Of a stretch of DNA of 20,000 nt, positions 1,054 to 20,000 are shown one piece after another (position 1 is the stretch's first letter; each line of letters begins with the position of its first letter). The stretch is from an uncultured virus (IMG/VR IMGVR_UViG_3300033074_002116) (Duplodnaviria; Heunggongvirae; Uroviricota; Caudoviricetes). The position numbers were made by a program, and so were the translations under genes. Under the pieces are notes generated by a model. The model ran no database searches. It was given only the letters and a program-made list of their open reading frames with translations, and was not told the DNA's origin. The DNA is taken from the IMG/VR virus record IMGVR_UViG_3300033074_002116, one strand, 5' to 3'.

Positions 1054-2078
1054 CGACTATTTTCCCGTCTTTCAAGTGCCTCAATCTTTGCCATGAGATT
1101 ATTCTGTGTTTCAAGCATCTGCCCAATCAGCCCCATCAGCTTAACAACAGTCTGCTGCGCAGTGGTCCCGCCATTTACCATAGCTTCGACTTTCTGGATG
1201 TTTGCCTGAAGAGGATCTAGGGCTTCGCGGATAATCGCAGGCATCCGGTCGGCAATCCCTACAAAAGAATCCAGCGGCCGGATGCTTTCAATACTGTTTA
1301 TGGCTCCGCGGGTGTTTTCCACCTCTGCAAGATCGGGCCGCACTTTCTCCCCGGACTTATCAATAGACCATCCTTCCGCAGTAACCCCTTTCTTTGCAGC
1401 TTCCCCTTCTGCCTGCACAAAGAAACTGATATGTTCCTTATAGATCGGCCTGCCCGTTGACTCCAGCCGGATCCTGCACCCGAACCTTCCCTGCACTTCT
1501 ACGAACTGGTCCTTTACCGCGATGCAATACTGGTATGCCCGGAAGATAGCGTCATCGACTGTGAATCCCCCGACCCTCTGGATCTTGTTGAGCTTGTCCA
1601 TCTGGATCATGAGGGTCTTTCCCCAGACCGTAACAGTGAAATCGGGATCACCATTTTTGCCGAAGAAGGTATAAGTGAGCCGTAAACCCCCTCGCGGTTT
1701 ATACGATCCCTGGAGCGATGAGATCCGCGGGTCGTGGGAGTACTCGCCTGACCGCTGGAGGATCTTAAAGACCATGCCGATCCGGTGGACGCGGAAGGGA
1801 GAGAGCTTCGGGGCGTTTTCTTCGGAGAGTTGCTTTTCAGCTTCTTCGCTGAGATCATAGAGGATGTTGTATTTCAGTCCCTTCTTTTTGCTGATCAGTC
1901 CTTTCTCTTCGAGCCTTGTGATTATGGCAGCAACCGATGACCGCGGGAACCCGGTGGCGTGGGTAATGCGGGATGCTGGCAGGGAATCGCGGATGAGGAG
2001 AAGGATCCGGCGCTCGCGCTCGGTAAGATCGCGGGCAGCCTGCCGTTGCCAGTATTCCTGAAGGTTGTGCTGCGGCAT
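1050..2078 (-). CDS. Winged helix-turn-helix (MarR-like N-terminus) protein with C-terminal coiled coil; possible replication or regulatory protein
   Basis: 342 aa. LTERERRILLLIRD...ASRITHATGFPRSSVAAIITRLEEKGLISKKK...YDLSEEA is a typical wHTH; the C-terminus is heptad-rich. Confidence 0.75.
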   Translation of the reverse strand: MPQHNLQEYWQRQAARDLTERERRILLLIRDSLPASRITHATGFPRSSVAAIITRLEEKGLISKKKGLKYNILYDLSEEAEKQLSEENAPKLSPFRVHRIGMVFKILQRSGEYSHDPRISSLQGSYKPRGGLRLTYTFFGKNGDPDFTVTVWGKTLMIQMDKLNKIQRVGGFTVDDAIFRAYQYCIAVKDQFVEVQGRFGCRIRLESTGRPIYKEHISFFVQAEGEAAKKGVTAEGWSIDKSGEKVRPDLAEVENTRGAINSIESIRPLDSFVGIADRMPAIIREALDPLQANIQKVEAMVNGGTTAQQTVVKLMGLIGQMLETQNNLMAKIEALERRENSR

Positions 2079-5224: not shown

Positions 5225-5491
5225 TCAAACCTCCGAATAAATATTATCGAACAGGAACGATGACTGGGAATTACGGGAATGGACTGGTATTAATCTTCCC
5301 AACGAATGCCCGAGTATTGAGGCTTTCCCTTTGCGGCCCTTTACTTCTCGCAGGTATTCCGGATATCTCTGGTCAAATTCGTCCAGTATATCCGATGTCC
5401 GGATATATCTTCGCTGCGTTTTGAGAAAGGTGATCAGATCGGATCTCATGGTAGCGGCCAGTATTGAGAATGGGGGTTTTTGGTTGGTCAT
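5225..5491 (-). CDS. Small basic protein, possibly wHTH-like
   Basis: 88 aa from ATG 5491, ATGA overlap with the PCNA stop. Confidence 0.6.
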   Translation of the reverse strand: MTNQKPPFSILAATMRSDLITFLKTQRRYIRTSDILDEFDQRYPEYLREVKGRKGKASILGHSLGRLIPVHSRNSQSSFLFDNIYSEV

Positions 5492-6285
5492 TCCAACCAT
5501 CCGGTTATTGGGTTACTATCATCTTCAATTCGCGGCGCCAACAGGAATTTTACGGAAAGCTCCGGTAAGGGTTTGCCAGAGATGGATGCTGGATGATCGT
5601 CCCGCAATTCAACCAATACCTCACCTGTGCCTTCCCAGAATTTTGCTATATCCCTTAAATAATCCAGACTATAATTTGCCTGAGCCGGTTCTGTCGCACT
5701 ATACGCTACCTGCGCCCTTACCTGATCTGGTGCAAGATCTTTTGCAGCAATATAACAGGCCCCGTCTTTTTCAATATCGATCCAACAACTATCGCTGAAA
5801 AGTCCTGCTGTTTGTATTGCCCATGTAAAGAGGGGGCCGCTGCAAACAAACTTTGAAGGCAAAGTAATGGTTGGCCGGTTTGGATCTTTTCGGACTTCGT
5901 TATCCGGGACTGTGCCGAGACGGAAATGAATATCGCCGTTTTCAGTTTCAATATCTAAGAGCGGGGCTTTCTCTCCTTGGAGCCAGGATATGAATAGGCA
6001 GGGATTGTCTTCCAGATATCTTTTTTCAATTGCTTCCAGACAGGATTTGATTATGCCCGGAGCAATACCGAGAATTGTCCTATTGCCGTTTGGAAGTTTT
6101 GATTCGATGATTCTTAATTCGGCATCCACCATTGCAATATTTGCGGCATCAACTACCAATACTGAGAGAGTCTCTGCATTAATATGAAGACGGGCTTCTG
6201 ACGAGATTGTGCTAATCGCCGATATGAACTTCTTAAATGGTTTAAGTTCGGAGGTGAAACTTCCCATTGCTTTTGGTTGGGTCAT
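5488..6285 (-). CDS. pcn: DNA polymerase sliding clamp (PCNA homolog)
   Basis: FKKFISAISTISSEARLHINAETLSVLVVDAANIAMVDAEL N-terminus, YSLDYLRDI, and C-terminal FLLAPRIE are archaeal PCNA signatures; 265 aa. Confidence 0.92.
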   Translation of the reverse strand: MTQPKAMGSFTSELKPFKKFISAISTISSEARLHINAETLSVLVVDAANIAMVDAELRIIESKLPNGNRTILGIAPGIIKSCLEAIEKRYLEDNPCLFISWLQGEKAPLLDIETENGDIHFRLGTVPDNEVRKDPNRPTITLPSKFVCSGPLFTWAIQTAGLFSDSCWIDIEKDGACYIAAKDLAPDQVRAQVAYSATEPAQANYSLDYLRDIAKFWEGTGEVLVELRDDHPASISGKPLPELSVKFLLAPRIEDDSNPITGWLE

Positions 6286-8340: not shown

Positions 8341-8648
8341 GATCTAATCGCACTCCTTGCGTGCTCTTCTGCAAGACATTTCGGACGGTCTAGGACGAGA
8401 TCAAAGATCTTGTTCTCTGATTTCTTATGGGTGCAATCTCCGGGGAAATCGCAATCATATCCGTTGGAGAATTTGCAATATTTGCGTCTTCGACCGTAAA
8501 ACACATCGCTCTTTTCTAGTGATGCGATCTCTTCTTTGAGTTCGAAAACTCTCTTCCGGATATCACCGGCCTCTTTATTAATTGCGTCTTCTTCGTCGAT
8601 AACTTCTTGGAAAAATTTGTTTCCCGACAGATTTTGATGTTCTGACAT
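8337..8648 (-). CDS. Coiled-coil plus Cys-cluster hypothetical protein
   Basis: Start at ATG 8648 just after the upstream stop; about 103 aa. Confidence 0.6.
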   Translation of the reverse strand: MSEHQNLSGNKFFQEVIDEEDAINKEAGDIRKRVFELKEEIASLEKSDVFYGRRRKYCKFSNGYDCDFPGDCTHKKSENKIFDLVLDRPKCLAEEHARSAIRS

Positions 8649-9579: not shown

Positions 9580-9718
9580 CCACTTCACACTCCTGATAAT
9601 CTGGGCATTCATCGCAATTTATCCCGGTGATTGGAGTTCCTTTCTTTGCAGAATCTCCAATCGGGCATCTGCGATTGTTGCGTTTTATTGGAGGCTTATC
9701 CTGTGGAGGCGAAGTCAT
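9572..9718 (-). CDS. Cys-rich microprotein (48 aa)
   Basis: ATGA overlap at 9715-9718; C..CDEC..C. Confidence 0.5.
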   Translation of the reverse strand: MTSPPQDKPPIKRNNRRCPIGDSAKKGTPITGINCDECPDYQECEVDE

Positions 9719-10383
9719 CGCTGGAACCCCCGTGGACAGATATCCCTTCCGCGGATCTCCCCGCAGACTTCCGATCCTTCGGGTCTTTTCACGTTCCTGC
9801 ACAACATTGTTGCCGGGTCCATTGTTGCCGGGTCCATTGTTGCCGGGTCCATTGTTGCCGGGTCCATTGTTGCCGGGTCCATTGTTGCCGGGTCCATTGT
9901 TGCTCCTTCCGGGCGGGACGCATCCAGACAATCTTCGGGTTTAAGGATCGGCGTCATCGGGTCAACAAGCCACGCATGACGTTCTCCCGCGGCTTTGCGG
10001 AACGCTGCGAGGCGGTTATGCAGTTCGCACCATTCCACCGATCTGAAATGGAGATTGTCCATTGTGTGGTGATCGAATCCCACAGGACGCGGATCATGGT
10101 TGTCGCAGCAGGGAGAACCCGCGGGAAATGTTTTGTTCTCGCTGCCCTTTGCGGCGAAGTGCATTACGGTATAGTCTTCCTGTGGGTGAAGGAAGAGGTA
10201 CTTTCTCCTGCCGCATACTGCACAGGTTTCCATTCTCCTGCCGAGATTGGATCCAGTCTTTCCGAAGTTTTCTGCATGACACGTACCGCCGCATTCGGGG
10301 CAGCGGATGTCTTCGAGTTTGCAGCCGCGGTGCGCTCCCCAATGGACGTTCTTGCCGCAGTTGTTGCAGATTGCGTTAGCCAT
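9715..10383 (-). CDS. Multi zinc-ribbon protein containing (ATMDP)6 repeat
   Basis: CNNCG, CPECGG, CAVCG motifs; 222 aa. Confidence 0.7.
   Translation of the reverse strand: MANAICNNCGKNVHWGAHRGCKLEDIRCPECGGTCHAENFGKTGSNLGRRMETCAVCGRRKYLFLHPQEDYTVMHFAAKGSENKTFPAGSPCCDNHDPRPVGFDHHTMDNLHFRSVEWCELHNRLAAFRKAAGERHAWLVDPMTPILKPEDCLDASRPEGATMDPATMDPATMDPATMDPATMDPATMDPATMLCRNVKRPEGSEVCGEIRGRDICPRGFQR
9805..9903. repeat. Perfect 15-bp tandem repeat CATTGTTGCCGGGTC, 6.6 copies
   Basis: Read directly: six identical units plus 9 nt. Confidence 0.98.
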
Positions 10384-14046: not shown

Positions 14047-14760
14047 TCACACCTCTAATTTTTCGCACGTTTCAAGATGATTAATGATCCACCGATCAAT
14101 TTTTATTTTAAGTTTTTCACGTTCATCGGCGGCATAGGCGGCGGCATAGGCGGCACGGGCGGCGGCATAGGCGGCACGGGCGGCGGCATAGGCGGCACGG
14201 GCGGCGGCATAGGCGGCATCGGTGGCGGCATAGGCGGCATCGGCGGCGGCATAGGCGGCATCGGTGGCGGCATAGGCGGCACGGGCGGCGGCATAGGCGG
14301 CACGGGCGGCGGCATAGGCGGCATCGGTGGCGGCATAGGCGGCATCGGTACCTATCGCGGCCACGCATTCCTTCGCCTTTGTAATTGCCTCGCGGACCCT
14401 GGGATCGGAGGGGTACTTTTTCTCGTACACATCCAAGACAAGTTCCGCAGCATAGATCGCAAGTTCAGCAGAATCTTTTGGCATCCATTTCCAAGCAGAC
14501 AAGATCCTCATTTCCTGTACTGTGATCTTGTCGCCTTCTTCGATCTGCTTCCCACGGATCTCCACTTGCGCCAGAACCTCGCAGTTCACGTAGCCCATCG
14601 CGTCCGCTGCGTGCCGGCAACAGTTAAGCCCTTCACAGGCTACTTTCACCGGGTACGGATTATTGCGCCATTCTCCGACGGTCCACGAGCTGTGATCGTG
14701 ATCCGATACAATCGTTCCCTCTTTCAGTTTTAGGGATTTCCAAAGCGTTTGTTTTGTCAT
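14047..14760 (-). CDS. Phage protein with Imm5-like helical domain and Ala-rich heptad repeats
   Basis: CEGLNCCRHAADA N-domain, LAIYAAELVLDVYEKKYPSDPRVREAI, then (xxAAYAA)10. Confidence 0.75.
   Translation of the reverse strand: MTKQTLWKSLKLKEGTIVSDHDHSSWTVGEWRNNPYPVKVACEGLNCCRHAADAMGYVNCEVLAQVEIRGKQIEEGDKITVQEMRILSAWKWMPKDSAELAIYAAELVLDVYEKKYPSDPRVREAITKAKECVAAIGTDAAYAATDAAYAAARAAYAAARAAYAATDAAYAAADAAYAATDAAYAAARAAYAAARAAYAAARAAYAAAYAADEREKLKIKIDRWIINHLETCEKLEV
14124..14349. repeat. 21-bp in-frame tandem repeat, about 10 units in three variants
   Basis: Units encode TDAAYAA, ARAAYAA or ADAAYAA. Confidence 0.95.
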
Positions 14761-15634: not shown

Positions 15635-15844
15635 TCACGCTCCTTTTGTTTCTGTGATCGCTCTCGTCGCCTCCGGAATCCGGATCAAACACTGCCCGGC
15701 CCTCCAGGCACCGGTACAAGCATACCGGCACCATTTCGGGCAATAGGGATCGGCAGGATCCCGGCGCTCGTTTGGGGCGAGCTCTGCCGGTTTCCCGCGC
15801 CCGGCCCACGTATGGCCATACCGGGAAAGTTCTTCCGCGGTCAT
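15635..15844 (-). CDS. Cys-containing microprotein
   Basis: MTAEEL start, ATGA overlap; CPKWCRYAC..C. Confidence 0.55.
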   Translation of the reverse strand: MTAEELSRYGHTWAGRGKPAELAPNERRDPADPYCPKWCRYACTGAWRAGQCLIRIPEATRAITETKGA

Positions 15845-16122
15845 AAAATTACCCCGCCGAGAAGAAAACGGTTTAACGTAATACATGGTGTAATAGTCTC
15901 ACAAAATGCGTGTTCCCCCCATTTTATTCTGGCCGGTTGTATCATCCTTTGGAGAGTGTCGAACCCTTCATCCGATAAGCTATTTAATCCAAGATTAACC
16001 GAATCTTTAAAAATTTCGATTCGACAGGTGGGCCAAATGCAATCTTCACAGCAAGGGTACTGGGGTTTATATCTTCCCCCTCCGAGAAGCATTTCGATTT
16101 CTGCAAAATTTTCATCGCTCAT
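15841..16122 (-). CDS. Cys-containing hypothetical protein
   Basis: 93 aa, GGTGA RBS, CCEDC..C. Confidence 0.65.
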   Translation of the reverse strand: MSDENFAEIEMLLGGGRYKPQYPCCEDCIWPTCRIEIFKDSVNLGLNSLSDEGFDTLQRMIQPARIKWGEHAFCETITPCITLNRFLLGGVIL

Positions 16123-16460
16123 AAGTCACCACTCACCGGAGGGATCGGCCTCAGGAAAACACGCCGATTACCGGTGCGCTGGTATTCCTGCCCCACTTTG
16201 CGGGCATGGTCCATAATTACCCAATCCCGGTTCGTGTCTCGGTCTTCGCATTCGGTGCCGGCCTTTACTGTATGGCCATAACCAATATGGCACTTTTTCA
16301 CCGGGCAGTACAGCTCTTTTGCAGAATCTACCGCTATGCCGTTTTCGGTATGTCTTTGAGCTTTGCGGCAGAAGCAACAGTTTTTATCTGGATCCGGTAC
16401 CGGATCAAGAATCTGGACGCCCTGCGCTTTGAGATATGCGGGGCTAAAAGGATTTGCCAT
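16119..16460 (-). CDS. Cys-rich hypothetical protein
   Basis: 113 aa, GGAGGTGA RBS, CCFC..C..C..C. Confidence 0.7.
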   Translation of the reverse strand: MANPFSPAYLKAQGVQILDPVPDPDKNCCFCRKAQRHTENGIAVDSAKELYCPVKKCHIGYGHTVKAGTECEDRDTNRDWVIMDHARKVGQEYQRTGNRRVFLRPIPPVSGDL

Positions 16461-16461
16461 T

Positions 16462-16818
16462 TTAGTTCACCTCCATAAAATAATTGAAATAGTCAACATA
16501 CGACCGGTTATAAAACCGGCTTTTTAATACCATATTAATTAGCTTTTCTATGGGGAAATTCTGCATAATTTCAAGCACATGCTGAATTGCCTTATCCCCC
16601 TCATAATCATATACGTGCAAATGGAACCGGGATCCCGGGGCATCGTTCCCGCCATAAACAAACGAGACGTACACGGCAAAGGCGTATTTGTTCCCGGGGA
16701 AATGCTCGACCTGGAAATAGCCCGGAAAGTCCGGCACGTGCCGGACCATAGTATCATTGTTATCGCTCCATCCCGGGTACTGATTGATATATCTGGTATA
16801 GTGGCCGGTCGTGCTCAT
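16462..16818 (-). CDS. Aromatic-rich hypothetical protein
   Basis: 118 aa from ATG 16818, ATGA overlap. Confidence 0.7.
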   Translation of the reverse strand: MSTTGHYTRYINQYPGWSDNNDTMVRHVPDFPGYFQVEHFPGNKYAFAVYVSFVYGGNDAPGSRFHLHVYDYEGDKAIQHVLEIMQNFPIEKLINMVLKSRFYNRSYVDYFNYFMEVN

Positions 16819-17087
16819 GCCAGTACACCATTCCACTTTTCCGGGTTTGCCTTATTCAGTACGGAAATTGCATGGTAGTTAAACGGGCACATTTCAACTA
16901 ATGGCACACGGAACATCCCGTACTCATAAAAATGGGCCTTCCGGTCAATCTCGCAGCACGCATTAACTACTTCTGTGCGATTCTCACCATATGCGTATTT
17001 TTTGCATAAGTCCTCAGATGTAAACGGACCGAGCACCGGAATGGTTCTTCCGGCGTCCCGAACCGATACGTAATAGTGATCGGTCAT
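16815..17087 (-). CDS. Hypothetical phage protein
   Basis: YYVSVRDAGRT..LGPF motif; GAGGTGA RBS. Confidence 0.7.
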   Translation of the reverse strand: MTDHYYVSVRDAGRTIPVLGPFTSEDLCKKYAYGENRTEVVNACCEIDRKAHFYEYGMFRVPLVEMCPFNYHAISVLNKANPEKWNGVLA

Positions 17088-17278
17088 TCTGTCACCTCAC
17101 TTATCCTTTTTCCTTTGACTTCGACCACTCGGGATCCCGGGTATTTTTCTGCTGTATATCGTGCACTCTGTACCGTTTGATATTCGTTGGCCATTCCGAG
17201 CGGCCCCCACGATACAAAGCATCCGGGCAAATGCCGGTAAAATACTCCGGCGGCATTGATGACGTAAAATTGGCTCAT
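17084..17278 (-). CDS. Hypothetical microprotein
   Basis: 64 aa, GAGGTGA RBS, ends EVTE. Confidence 0.7.
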   Translation of the reverse strand: MSQFYVINAAGVFYRHLPGCFVSWGPLGMANEYQTVQSARYTAEKYPGSRVVEVKGKRISEVTE

Positions 17279-17418
17279 TCTGTCACCTCGTAATCTTCAT
17301 GGCATAACGGGCAGTGCCGGTACTCGATTTTTCGGTTTTCTGCTGGTGGGAATGAACCCATATAACAACCGCATGCCGGGCAGTTGTGCTCTAAGGGCGA
17401 AACGTATTTTACGGTCAT
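17275..17418 (-). CDS. Zinc-ribbon microprotein (47 aa), not in ORF track
   Basis: MTVKYVSPLEHNCPACGCYMGSFPPAENRKIEYRHCPLCHEDYEVTE. Confidence 0.7.
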   Translation of the reverse strand: MTVKYVSPLEHNCPACGCYMGSFPPAENRKIEYRHCPLCHEDYEVTE

Positions 17419-17627
17419 TCTGTCACCTCATACTTACCAACCTTAACCCGTGCATTTACAACCGGAAACGATGAAGTTTTTTCCATTTGTGCAAATTCTC
17501 TCCGTGTATTCTCAATATTCTTTTGAAGTGTCAATTTTTCATGCGTGATATATATTGGGCAGTTTTGATCGAAACCGTGCCCATTATTACAACCATCAAT
17601 TGTACATGATCCACACGGGTGATCCAT
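17415..17627 (-). CDS. Cys-containing microprotein
   Basis: 70 aa, CGSC..C..C, GAGGTGA RBS, ends VGKYEVTE. Confidence 0.65.
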   Translation of the reverse strand: MDHPCGSCTIDGCNNGHGFDQNCPIYITHEKLTLQKNIENTRREFAQMEKTSSFPVVNARVKVGKYEVTE

Positions 17628-17629
17628 AT

Positions 17630-17809
17630 TTAGATCACCTCATACTTACCAACAACATTACCGTTGGTGTCCCGGATCTGTTTTGCCGGCTTGTAGTGTA
17701 TGCCATCATAATGAATTAGATCGGCAATCTCGTGCAATGTGCGTGCTATATCATCATCGCTTCGCATTGCCTCATTCCCGAGATCAATTTCAAGGATAAA
17801 TTTTGGCAT
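17630..17809 (-). CDS. Small phage protein (59 aa), not in ORF track
   Basis: MPKFILEIDLGNEAM...IARTLHEIADLI...IRDTNGNVVGKYEVI; the IRDxNGNxVG motif is recalled from phage early proteins. Confidence 0.75.
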   Translation of the reverse strand: MPKFILEIDLGNEAMRSDDDIARTLHEIADLIHYDGIHYKPAKQIRDTNGNVVGKYEVI

Positions 17810-17811
17810 GG

Positions 17812-18111
17812 TTACTCATCGTCCTCTTCTTGAGCCTCTTTCGCGTACATCTCAGCAAGCTCGTACCAATCTACCTCTGACAGTGCCGCATTGATCAGAT
17901 CGGCAACAATAGAGGCAGCATCGCAGGCCGTGTATACTTCATCCCATGACTCTACCCACTCTTTCAGAGCATCGGACAGGTGCGCTAATGACGGCTCCCT
18001 ACGAGCAATCCGGCGCGCTTCGCATTGTCTGTATTCATCGTTGTCGATCCAAAGCGCCACAAGCCACGTCTCGTAGTTGTTGTAGCCGTTGTATTTCTCG
18101 TTGTTTGCCAT
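17812..18111 (-). CDS. Conserved acidic phage early protein
   Basis: YNGYNNYETWLVALWIDNDE...VDWYELA, a motif recalled from widespread phage hypothetical proteins. Confidence 0.8.
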   Translation of the reverse strand: MANNEKYNGYNNYETWLVALWIDNDEYRQCEARRIARREPSLAHLSDALKEWVESWDEVYTACDAASIVADLINAALSEVDWYELAEMYAKEAQEEDDE

Positions 18112-18127
18112 AATCTCTCATCTCTCT

Positions 18128-18194
18128 TTACCGGCACTTCCGGCCGGCAATCCCCGCCCGGGAACTGGACCCGGCGAATCGACAAAAACGGGGA
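18128..18194 (-). ncRNA. Intergenic structured RNA element, copy 2 (tRNA top-half-like plus hairpin)
   Basis: TCCCCGT/GCGGGGA stem, CCGGG-TCCAGTT-CCCGG arm, TTGCCGGC-CGGAAGT-GCCGGTAA hairpin. Confidence 0.55.
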
Positions 18195-18196
18195 GA

Positions 18197-18418
18197 TTAC
18201 CGAACTTGTTTGCCGTTGTCCCGTCCGTCCGCATCCTCAAAAAGTCCTCTTGCAATCTCACGCAGGTGTTTTTTGTCCCACGCAATAAAGATCCGGCTCC
18301 TATCATGCGCCGTGTTGCGTGACCGGGCCGTGTACATCGTACCGCTTGCGCCATCGGTGATCTTGAGGTCATCCACTCCTAGGTAATCTGCAATCTGTTT
18401 CAGGGTGATTTTTTCCAT
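18197..18418 (-). CDS. Hypothetical protein (73 aa)
   Basis: MEKITLKQIADYLGVDDL...; start at ATG 18418. Confidence 0.65.
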   Translation of the reverse strand: MEKITLKQIADYLGVDDLKITDGASGTMYTARSRNTAHDRSRIFIAWDKKHLREIARGLFEDADGRDNGKQVR

Positions 18419-18434
18419 CTCTCTTACACTCCTA

Positions 18435-18488
18435 GCCCATTCCGGGCAATCCCCTATCCCGGTACTGAGCCGGGGAGGCACATAGGGG
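18435..18488 (-). ncRNA. Intergenic structured RNA element, copy 1
   Basis: CCCCTAT/ATAGGGG stem, CCCGG-CTCAGTA-CCGGG arm, GCCC-GGAAT-GGGC hairpin. Confidence 0.55.
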
Positions 18489-18489
18489 G

Positions 18490-18708
18490 TTAACGGAGTA
18501 TGTCCCCGTTACCGTCAATCATATGCAGGAGTAACCCGTCTTTTACCCGATATTCCCACATATTATAATTCTCTTCATCTACTGGCCGGATGGTTATCAT
18601 TTTGTCCCCGTTGTCCATCGTCCAATTACCATCCTGTTTTACAGGGATACCGTTTATTGTGGTTGGCGGTTTTACCATTTGTCTCATCTCTTTTTGTGTC
18701 TCTTGCAC
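18490..18708 (-). CDS. First gene of the leftward operon, hypothetical (start may be ATG 18687 or 18678)
   Basis: Open frame directly downstream of the TATA box. Confidence 0.6.
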   Translation of the reverse strand: MQETQKEMRQMVKPPTTINGIPVKQDGNWTMDNGDKMITIRPVDEENYNMWEYRVKDGLLLHMIDGNGDILR

Positions 18709-18745
18709 ATACTAGTATATGCAAGGCTGTTATATATACATTGCG
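18702..18745 (-). promoter_or_regulatory. Leftward BRE/TATA promoter with 24-bp palindromic operator
   Basis: Minus strand CGCAATGTATATATAA (TATA at 18730-18738), followed by the palindrome CTTGCACATACTAGTATATGCAAG (18702-18725). Confidence 0.7.
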
Positions 18746-19360
18746 TTTTGTTCCGCGTGGGAAAGAAAATGAGGAAGAATACAATAAGAAAGTACCAAGC
18801 AGATTCCTGAAATGCCCTGTTTTTGCACGTATGAGTGTAACAAAAAATTGTGTGTGAGATAGTTTTATTTACTGATATATTACTATAAGGGGCTGGCCCG
18901 ATTTTTCGCAAGATTGATTGATGGGATTTTTAAAAACGCGACTGAAAAAATTCCATAAAACATTTCCGGGAATTTTTCGCGCTTTTCAAATTTTTCTCTC
19001 GTGCGTGGATGTACGTGTTTTTTCCGGTTGCTTACCGGTATGTATTATATTACTGTATGACTTGCCGGGCGGTTTTTGGGTTTTTGCTAAGTCCGGCCCA
19101 CCAGACCCGACACAGTACATTGATGCGCCGAAATGCGCACATTGTGTACATACTGTATGCCAAGATCGCAGTACATGTACACGCTGCGTACACCCCCACC
19201 CGCATGCGGGTCGGGTGCGCAGATGTGCCGGATTTGTGTTTTCCGGTTTTTGAAAAATTTTGAAATTTTGAAAAACCGGAAAATTTCCAAAAATCTGCAA
19301 ATTTTCAAAAATTGCAAAAATGGGAAAATTTGGCTTTTTCTGCGAAAACTGAAGATCTGC
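18746..19360. other. Non-coding divergent region with palindromes and periodic A/T tracts
   Basis: No credible ORF. 13-bp inverted repeat 19239-19251/19271-19283, 14-bp palindrome 19198-19211, A-tracts about every 9 bp from 19253 to 19328. Confidence 0.7.
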
Positions 19361-19373
19361 AAAAAATATATAT
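19358..19373 (+). promoter_or_regulatory. Rightward BRE/TATA promoter
   Basis: GCAAAAAATATATAT about 25 nt upstream of ATG 19397 (leaderless spacing). Confidence 0.6.
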
Positions 19374-19396
19374 GGTTCTCCTCCGATATTCTGGTT

Positions 19397-19537
19397 ATGG
19401 CACGGTCAGCAACTCCGACAAAGGTCAGCCCGTATAAGCGGGACGTTCCGAAGCGCTATGAAGATCACCATGGCATGGTCCGCGGCTGGGTCCGCCAGGG
19501 ATCCCCAAACGCAGAACGGCCAGCGCGGAAACGGTGA
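19397..19537 (+). CDS. Small basic protein (46 aa)
   Basis: MARSATPTKVSPYKRDVPKRYEDHHGMVRGWVRQGSPNAERPARKR, immediately after the TATA box. Confidence 0.55.
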   Translation: MARSATPTKVSPYKRDVPKRYEDHHGMVRGWVRQGSPNAERPARKR

Positions 19538-19836
19538 TCGAAGAAAACCAAAACCTCTATCTTTATCTGTTTTTGCAGATTACATTTCGGGGCATGACGA
19601 AACAGATACTTTACCGGGACAATCGGGGCCGGTTTATTTCTCCGAAGACTCTTTGTTCCCGGGATTGCTCGATCTTCTATACCTGTAAACAGAACAAGCT
19701 CGCAAAGCTGGGTAAAGTATGCACATCGCGGGCGCGGCTGCCCAAGATCTGCAAAAAAGAAGACCCCGTTTCTTTTAAACGCTACGATCTGCAAGAACGA
19801 GAGTTGAGGCGATGCGCCTGCGAAGGTGGGGGTTGA
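19534..19836 (+). CDS. Basic Cys-rich hypothetical protein
   Basis: GTGA overlap with the upstream stop; RDNRGRF motif and several Cys. Confidence 0.4.
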   Translation: MIEENQNLYLYLFLQITFRGMTKQILYRDNRGRFISPKTLCSRDCSIFYTCKQNKLAKLGKVCTSRARLPKICKKEDPVSFKRYDLQERELRRCACEGGG

Positions 19837-20000
19837 GGGTTTGCAGAAACGATATCGGCGCCGCTCTTGGTATTGCAGGGAGCGTTGTCGCATTAATCGG
19901 CTCGCTCGCGGTGAACCTGCTGCACGATCAGCTTTTGGCGCGGGAGATCTGGCTGTTGTCGAATCCCCTGTTGCGGGTTTGGGCGATTGGTGCGCAGGAA

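Follow-up and report, generated by a model that had tools for sequence, protein, structure and literature searches.

Conserved structured spacers as modular junctions between presumed early genes of a tailed virus with a probable archaeal host

The expression of early operons in archaeal viruses, and the turnover of their messages, are little understood. Structured sites within early polycistronic RNA are exemplified by the RNase III sites of T7, where cutting leaves a 3' hairpin that stabilizes the upstream message, and the ends of mRNAs in plant mitochondria offer a case of t-elements. The original prediction for the locus discussed here had noted that archaea use such tRNA-like elements as processing signals, and indeed the t-elements of Haloferax are described as substrates of RNase P and tRNase Z that remain functional beside foreign RNA (PMC4326828). 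In T4-like phages, conserved intergenic stem-loop motifs known as PeSL (early promoter–stem-loop composites) lie on either side of small variable early genes, where they bring about indels and replacements (PMC4122927), and the nearest described counterpart in an archaeal tailed virus is the set of intergenic repeats of halovirus HF2 (PMC8707807). The locus in question lies in a stretch of 20,000 nucleotides (nt), hereafter the window, of an uncultured member of the Caudoviricetes (IMG/VR record IMGVR_UViG_3300033074_002116), and consists of two intergenic spacers, S1 and S2, in the operon that opens its minus strand. Judged by sequence comparison, these spacers appear to act as modular joints that separate variable early genes of a tailed virus, probably one of archaea, and this modular conservation across metagenomes is both more solid and more interesting than the mimicry of tRNA that had been put forward.

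Both spacers are on the minus strand, as are the parts and genes of the operon given below. S1 (18416..18492) extends from the TAA of open reading frame (ORF) A (18492-18490) through the ATG of ORF B (18418-18416), and S2 (18119..18199) from the TAA of ORF B (18199-18197) to a conserved AAGAGAGATG, the start of ORF C following at 18111. As predicted, the two fold alike with different sequences within 2 nt of the stops at 18490 and 18197, and they share one layout, in which the stop codon is followed by 1 nt (S1) or 2 nt (S2), a 7-nt 5' strand, a linker, an arm of 5 base pairs (bp) with a 7-nt loop, and the 7-nt 3' strand directly abutting that arm. In the 5' module of S1 (18451..18488), CCCCTAT (18488-18482) pairs with ATAGGGG (18457-18451) around a 7-nt linker, GTGCCTC (18481-18475), and the arm CCCGG/CTCAGTA/CCGGG (18474-18458). 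Its counterpart in S2 (18151..18194) pairs TCCCCGT (18194-18188) with GCGGGGA (18157-18151), including one T-G, around a 13-nt linker that contains TTTTT (18187-18175) and the arm CCGGG/TCCAGTT/CCCGG (18174-18158). In neither copy can the 7-bp stem be extended at either end. Also as predicted, the 3' strand is followed in both by a shared 10-mer, GGGGATTGCC, which overlaps the strand, by a small hairpin with GGAA in its loop (hairpin 2; GCCC/GGAAT/GGGC at 18435..18447 in S1 and CCGGC/CGGAAGT/GCCGG at 18131..18147 in S2) and by AAGAGAGATG. The 10-mer, which marks the joint between two half-modules, occurs exactly at 18445-18454 and 18146-18155 and nowhere else in the window, and AAGAGAGATG is likewise exact only at 18416-18425 and 18119-18128, with one-mismatch copies in the leader of ORF A (18685-18694) and at 8504-8513. 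The G+C content of the spacers is 0.60-0.63.

Evidence for modularity came from short metagenome contigs. A public-run index lists for the stretch one full holder, presumably its source, and 13 runs with small shares, the holder runs being wastewater, freshwater, estuary, landfill, groundwater and sludge metagenomes, and the assembled contigs of runs X2, X3, X4 and X7 were compared with positions 17800-18900 at a likeness of at least 80%. In these contigs, both the spacers and the operon leader are found at 95-100% identity, next to ORFs that do not align, and the spacers are the best-conserved parts across runs listed under four different studies. X4 and X7 cover mainly 18096-18206, 18392-18502 and 18651-18798, i.e. 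on the two spacers and the leader with its promoter, X7 also covering the conserved 5' end of ORF C, and the promoter and leader at 18668-18798 are conserved in X2, X4 and X7 (where all three share a G>A change at 18750). A 370-nt contig of X4 (record 6) contains a complete S1 (18416-18492) with 0 differences and non-aligning flanks; between S1 and S2 it has 183 non-aligning letters against 236 in the window, its S2 shows 5 differences and 2 gaps (a 2-letter insertion), and its sequence past the TAA is unlike ORF A. The conserved block is bounded exactly by stop and start codons, with pieces ending at 18492 and 18416. In an X7 contig, 18490 is joined to 18676, so that ORF A is skipped or replaced. 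Perfect identity over 77 nt, linker and loops included, beside ORFs that do not align points to recombination at the spacers or to their transfer, and seems hard to explain by constraint alone.

The halves of the spacers are themselves exchanged. A 219-nt contig of X3 (record 4) joins the 5' half of S1 (18445-18492, 0 differences) to the 3' half of S2 (18117-18145), the ten letters at the joint 18145/18445, which are the shared 10-mer, fitting either side and both flanks being unlike the window. Another X4 contig (record 7) has the 5' half of S2 and the 10-mer, followed by letters unlike the window. Half-modules are found in at least four combinations, and GGGGAUUGCC is demonstrably the joint at which they reassort. 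Two loose ends of X4 contigs show further variation: behind 18179 the S2 linker is 2 nt shorter, which gives linker lengths of 7 nt in S1, 13 nt in S2 and 11 nt in X4 and places all length differences on the 5' side of the module, and before 18143 the stem of hairpin 2 is kept while its GGAA loop is lost. That the spacers act as modular junctions beside variable ORFs in other metagenomes is new with respect to the original prediction.

A second addition concerns the 3' half, whose conserved part is a ribosome-binding and start region. In S1 (18416..18433), a Shine-Dalgarno-like AGGAGTG (18433-18427) precedes AAGAGAGATG (18425-18416), within which the ATG of ORF B (18418-18416) is located; in S2 (18109..18128), AAGAGAGATGAGAGATT is followed by the ATG of ORF C (18111-18109). 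Genes of the window have a GGAGGTGA- or GGAGTGA-type motif 4-7 nt ahead of the ATG, and AGAGATGA is found 5-6 nt ahead of an ATG in S2, in the operon leader and in the variant spacer of X3. Since such motifs stand before the ATGs of the window, and AGGAGTG or AGAGATGA occurs in the spacers and the leader, AAGAGAGATG is part of the ribosome site and start rather than a separate motif. In X4 its (GA)n run is one GA unit longer (TC inserted behind 18120 on the plus strand), and the purine run ahead of the ATG is therefore variable in length between relatives (18120/18121 in the window). Whether S1 could be coding was considered as well, a frame being open from GTG 18481 into ORF B. This was rejected on the grounds that S1 is identical in X4 though the sequence after the ATG differs, and that the stems covary.

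What marks S1 and S2 as structured is that they form a homologous pair with compensatory changes, not their folding energy. They are 63% identical (43 of 68 aligned positions), and although 9 of the 24 stem positions differ, neither copy loses any of the 12 pairs in the two inner helices, 4 pairs being changed on both sides and one from U-A to U-G, whereas only 31-58% of cells are paired when the 3' partners are slid by 1-3 columns. The T-G pair of S2 is possible on the minus, mRNA-sense, strand only. ViennaRNA returns exactly the expected fold on short core pieces, in line with the stem and abutting arm originally described for both copies, and RNAalifold predicts the same 12 pairs on a structural alignment. 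A covariance model based only on S2 picks up S1 with 24.5 bits (E 6e-6) but no third copy in the window, the next match (12.6 bits, 2156-2221) lying within apparent coding sequence. The earlier description of the elements as covarying agrees with the 12 kept pairs, the 4 two-sided changes and RNAalifold, but it rests on two sequences and a model-fitted alignment, so that conservation of structure between the copies is suggestive and amounts to no proof. The feature is real, and its structure probably is as well. The shape alone is not remarkable. A descriptor of it (7 bp with at most one G-U, a linker of 3-20 nt, five Watson–Crick pairs, a 7-nt loop, abutting) matches 3 times in the window versus 0.185 +/- 0.41 times in 200 dinucleotide shuffles, 1% of which reach 2 (the third match, at 15751-15789 on the plus strand, is inside coding sequence and was taken as chance), but it also matches 24 times in 557,744 bases of unrelated natural loci, or about 0.86 times per 20 kb, so that by itself it is not rare.

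We tentatively favour a reading in which S1 and S2 are portable two-part intercistronic RNA modules, probably at once processing sites and recombination joints, in the opening operon of what is likely to be a tailed virus of archaea. The 5' half, starting 1-2 nt past the stop codon, would form a 12-bp interrupted helix with a 5'-side bulge of variable length, which would end the upstream message and protect it as a 3' structure. The 3' half, a short hairpin followed by the ribosome-binding and start region, would head the downstream cistron, and the invariant GGGGAUUGCC joining the halves would be the likely cut site. Were the polycistronic RNA cut at or near the shared 10-mer, the upstream message would end in a stable helix, the downstream one would start with a hairpin and a ribosome site, and neighbouring small genes could then be expressed and decay independently. 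The enzymes of tRNA maturation are one candidate for the nuclease that may act here, and the spacers may also stabilize the messages. The presence of the same modules between different ORFs would provide homology for recombination, by which early genes may be swapped or deleted.

Several observations weigh against this reading. The alignment (A6) was fitted to the structure and comprises two sequences, and 13 of 500 shuffles reach the observed covariation values. Against shuffles, the folding energies are ordinary, the two cores having z of -0.06 and -1.64. Full-length S1 has an alternative fold that is better by 0.7 kcal/mol, and the pair probability of its module is 0.07 in isolation (0.47 with 50-nt flanks); that of the S2 module is 0.71-0.99 alone and falls to 0.01-0.19 with 50-nt flanks. 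In total, the constrained fold of S1 including hairpin 2 has -25.2 kcal/mol, and the minimum free energy (MFE) of full S2, hairpin 2 included, is -33.0 kcal/mol; the MFE alternative of S1, in which its linker pairs as an anti-Shine-Dalgarno with its own AGGAGUG, was set aside as it is not conserved in S2. As regards modularity, a flank was called unlike when its identity was below 80%, so that these ORFs may have diverged fast from a common ancestor instead of having been replaced, and the variant of ORF A in X4 does have its first ~11 nt after the ATG in common with the window. The shorter side of the X3 joint measures 29 letters, just short of the 30 that serve as a warning level for joints with another organism or a repeat. 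No RNA run is on record among the listed holders of the stretch, the runs compared being contigs, and neither IMG/VR nor INPHARED nor 401 genomes yielded a relative of the spacers.

Another possibility is that the repeats work mainly at the level of DNA, as sites of cassette exchange and deletion, with the RNA fold a by-product. Exchange could proceed by homologous recombination, as with T4-like PeSL, or through a hairpin-recognizing recombinase acting on single-stranded DNA. The 95-100% identity of spacers beside non-aligning ORFs, the hybrid spacer joined within the shared 10-mer and the alternative 183-letter insert between S1 and S2 are what such joints would leave behind, and the PeSL provide a precedent (PMC4122927, PMC2839356). 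We nevertheless regard this as unlikely: the compensatory changes and the strand-specific T-G argue for selection on a folded single strand, the stems lack flanking core sites of the integron type, and no integrase, transposase or recombinase family was found in 48 distinct ORFs (20 of 78.5 kb).

The proposal that the spacers mimic the top half of a tRNA deserves a comparable, and equally low, weight. It supposes that host RNase P and/or tRNase Z mistake the stacked stem and arm for a minihelix of acceptor stem and T arm. RNase P would cut 5' of the stem, just past the stop codon, and tRNase Z past the base after the 3' strand, inside GGGGA/UUGCC, so that the operon RNA would be punctuated as in the mitochondrial tRNA-punctuation model. 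The helix geometry on which the original prediction relied is there in both copies: a 7-bp stem of the acceptor type, a 5-bp arm with a 7-nt loop contiguous with the 3' strand, no base intervening between the two, a last arm pair G-C as in G53-C61, and differences in length confined to the 5' side. Cleavage by tRNase Z would be predicted within the invariant 10-mer where half-modules are joined, and archaeal t-elements are processed by both enzymes and functional when transplanted (PMC4326828). The loops are another matter. As already remarked in the original prediction, they deviate from TTCRANY, CTCAGTA and TCCAGTT fitting only C56-A57, and of the T-loop consensus T54-Psi55-C56-R57-A58 both have G at 58 and neither has T54 and Psi55 together. 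However, a CAGT loop does not exclude a T arm, since the tRNA-Thr(UGU) that ARAGORN predicts at 1454-1528 (plus strand) of L221, an IMG/VR phage contig with four predicted tRNAs, has a GTCAGTT T-loop on a CCCGG/CCGGG arm. The spacers also lack the D arm, anticodon arm and elbow, their 5' strand is rich in C, position +1 being C or U, and unrelated DNA contains the same shape about 0.86 times per 20 kb. ARAGORN found no tRNA gene (0), tRNA-type Rfam models gave no match at E up to 10 in 16000-20000 or 18100-18500 (401 bases), and among the Rfam 15 families the best matches in 18100-18500 reach 12.8 and 12.7 bits (E 6.7) with unrelated families, so that no described Rfam family matches the element. 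Mimicry of tRNA is thus possible on the geometry of the helices and unproven. Rather doubtful is an extended version, a virus-borne archaeal 'tRNA punctuation' in which interchangeable minihelix modules after each early ORF would be cut by host RNase P and tRNase Z at GGGGA/UUGCC, each small, probably anti-host, gene being released as its own stabilized message, and related viruses would use these modules as joints for shuffling early-gene cassettes among themselves. If true, one element would have both RNA-processing and genome-plasticity roles.

It is improbable that the spacers are instead control elements bound by a protein or by the polymerase, such as a nut/put-like antitermination site, a translational operator or a partial terminator, the active part being the small GGAA hairpin or the TTTTT of the S2 linker. 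The loop of hairpin 2 in S2 is a GNRA-type GGAA closed by C-G (S1 has a GGAAU pentaloop), and we take this hairpin to resemble lambda boxB; the T5 of S2 lies 9 nt past the stop and runs of this kind are a possible archaeal termination signal; and both copies lie early in one operon. Yet the X4 variant keeps the stem of hairpin 2 without its GGAA loop, S1 has no T run, no candidate binding protein emerged from family searches of the window proteins, and neither a promoter nor an intrinsic terminator scored at either spacer in a scan that used bacterial-type consensus only. That the spacers have no function of their own, being a duplicated spacer with fortuitous G+C-rich hairpins whose conservation reflects very recent common descent and mosaic recombination, would agree with their ordinary folding energies, the commonness of the descriptor shape and the presence of only two copies in 20 kb, and is similarly hard to credit given that 9 of 9 stem differences keep pairing, that gaps of 71 and 85 nt are exceptional among the tight or overlapping junctions of the operon and that the spacers are the best-conserved parts across runs of four different studies. 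Other candidates can be treated more briefly. A kink-turn/L7Ae site or a bulge–helix–bulge splice motif would have tandem G-A or 3-nt bulges, neither of which was seen by reading; no box C/D RNA, known ribozyme or miniature inverted-repeat transposable element fits, size being among the reasons; an attP copy of the 3' half of a host tRNA is at odds with the non-canonical T-loop, Rfam being silent in all these cases; and the 37% difference between the copies argues against mimicry of a CRISPR repeat (an RNA anti-CRISPR), at least by sequence.

Relatives were sought widely. No match to 16000-20000 was returned by blastn against INPHARED, and IMG/VR gave 0 for the ORF B protein, a two-motif pattern, a degenerate pattern of the arm and 10-mer, the sliding clamp of the window and a 27-nt promoter stretch; a looser arm pattern in IMG/VR hit 13 loci, which on reading are chance or coding except for one real tRNA. 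The family of ORF C, DUF7249, led to 208 loci with 26-58% identity over full-length matches (higher only in short partial ones), those named being mostly bacterial, and a model (R2) run over 200 of them (all but L201-L208) produced one weak match, in L028 (E 0.11). Its closest homologues, 61-67% identical, are on ENA or Logan contigs of 512-976 bp. A scan of unrelated loci (557,744 bases) with the descriptor and motifs found nothing homologous, and a BLAST search with 18100-18800 against 401 genomes from the phylum of G001 gave 11 short matches (E 0.001-0.009) at about the level of chance, two of which on reading were G+C-rich and coding-like. The basis for covariation thus remains two copies and one variant of linker length.

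As for the setting, the minus strand carries almost every gene of the window, packed so closely that stops and starts overlap or abut, and this array begins at 18678, downstream of a regulatory region of ~900 bp. S1 and S2 are the only long non-coding gaps found in this array, four other apparent gaps looking like coding sequence on inspection. They separate ORF A (18490..18678; 62 residues, without a family), ORF B (18197..18418; 73 residues, no family above threshold and a weak HTH_38 match, E 0.017) and ORF C (17812..18111; 99 residues, DUF7249, PF23907, E 2.5e-9), the DUF7249 match beginning at residue 3 of ORF C when its start is placed at 18111. By their position these would be early genes, and A, B and C are presumably transcribed as one RNA. 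The promoter and leader (18679..18741) comprise a TATATATA box (18738-18731) and AAAAGAGATGAGACAA ahead of the ATG of ORF A; between the box and ORF A there is a 24-bp near-perfect palindrome (18702-18725), CTTGCA(C/T)ATACTAGTAT(A/G)TGCAAG, of operator-like appearance. The host is probably archaeal. A PCNA-type sliding clamp (5488-6285, minus strand) has no Pfam or PHROG match by sequence, but its Atlas model is closest to archaeal PCNAs (TM-score 0.81-0.84), and all 13 INPHARED records that it matches by tblastn, at 23-26% identity, are archaeal tailed viruses (12 haloarchaeal, one assigned to Methanomicrobiales), which bears out as probable the archaeal setting supposed originally. Because a window protein with an HD domain matches bacterial phages (39 records) and DUF7249 is widespread in bacterial phages, the call stays at 'probably'.

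Other repeats were noted in the window. On the minus strand, 17084-17809 holds three consecutive small ORFs with near-identical preceding junctions (…GAGGTGACAGA ATGA…), and two ORFs share the terminal peptide KYEV(T/I)E, which suggests that small genes, or the junctions between them, were duplicated in series. In the divergent intergenic zone, an AT-rich block (19239-19365) contains TTTTGAAAA-like units that recur every 9 bp, 7 of them in register, and is also a long imperfect palindrome with 36-nt arms, 72% complementary; weak miRNA-like Rfam matches are due to this hairpin, and the block could be an origin of replication or bent regulatory DNA. Around the same zone, the motif ATCTGCAAAAA / TTTTTGCAGAT occurs about five times in both orientations (19294-19302, 19355-19365, 19570-19580, 19747-19757 and 19787-19798) and resembles regulator binding sites. 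Two in-frame tandem repeats are found elsewhere: a 15-nt unit repeated 6.6 times at 9805-9903, which yields PATMD repeats in ORF 9715-10383, and a 21-nt unit repeated 10.6 times at 14124-14345, which encodes alanine/tyrosine-rich heptads in a DUF7666 protein (ORF 14047-14760).

How S1 and S2 relate to known systems is best judged feature by feature. They have in common with integron attC sites a folded element right after each cassette ORF, a structure better conserved than sequence and a short invariant core at the crossover. They differ in lacking RYYYAAC/GTTRRRY cores, in measuring 38-44 nt against at least 57, and in that the unit exchanged in X4 looks like the ORF alone; no integron integrase family is present among the 48 distinct ORFs scanned, which come from 20 of 78.5 kb. 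With the RNase III sites of T7 they share the position of structured intercistronic sites in viral early polycistronic RNA, but they have short helices of 7+5 bp in which the interruption is confined to one side, and to our knowledge archaea have no classical RNase III pathway for such processing. The t-element upstream of the 5S rRNA of Haloferax volcanii is likewise a non-tRNA helix resembling acceptor and T arm that adjoins another RNA as a cutting signal (PMC4326828), whereas S1 and S2 offer only a 12-bp stack without a canonical T-loop or other arms and without a covariance-model or ARAGORN match, and are putative cleavage sites. If they are indeed processing and expression modules, they could provide, like t-elements, a compact portable part for methanogen or haloarchaeal genetics.

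In the open-access full-text literature, we found no structured intercistronic RNA, tRNA-like or equivalent intergenic-repeat element in archaeal or methanogen viruses. The class I/II repeats of HF2 are similar in being conserved between early and middle genes of an archaeal tailed virus and kept in relatives, but they are described as AT-rich promoters of 29-58 bp with a B recognition element (BRE) and TATA box and mapped start sites (PMC8707807), while S1 and S2 have a G+C content of 0.60-0.63, no TATA-like run, no BRE/TATA ~26 nt ahead of a start site inside the repeat, and a signal that consists in base pairing. With PeSL the locus has a population pattern in common. As there, a repeat flanks variable small ORFs, and indels or replacements are bounded by it (as in X4 record 6, X3 record 4 and X7). 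PeSL, which belong to bacterial phages, combine an early promoter with a stem-loop of terminator type (PMC4122927), whereas at S1 and S2 no such site scored with bacterial-type consensus, a two-helix structure with covariation is found, the ribosome-binding site is included and the host is probably archaeal. Were the spacers processing and expression modules, a search for what they enclose could lead to rapidly changing early genes of uncultured archaeal viruses, some perhaps directed against host defence. Constant spacers with changing ORFs across metagenomes offer a concrete archaeal counterpart to the modular gene shuffling mediated by PeSL.

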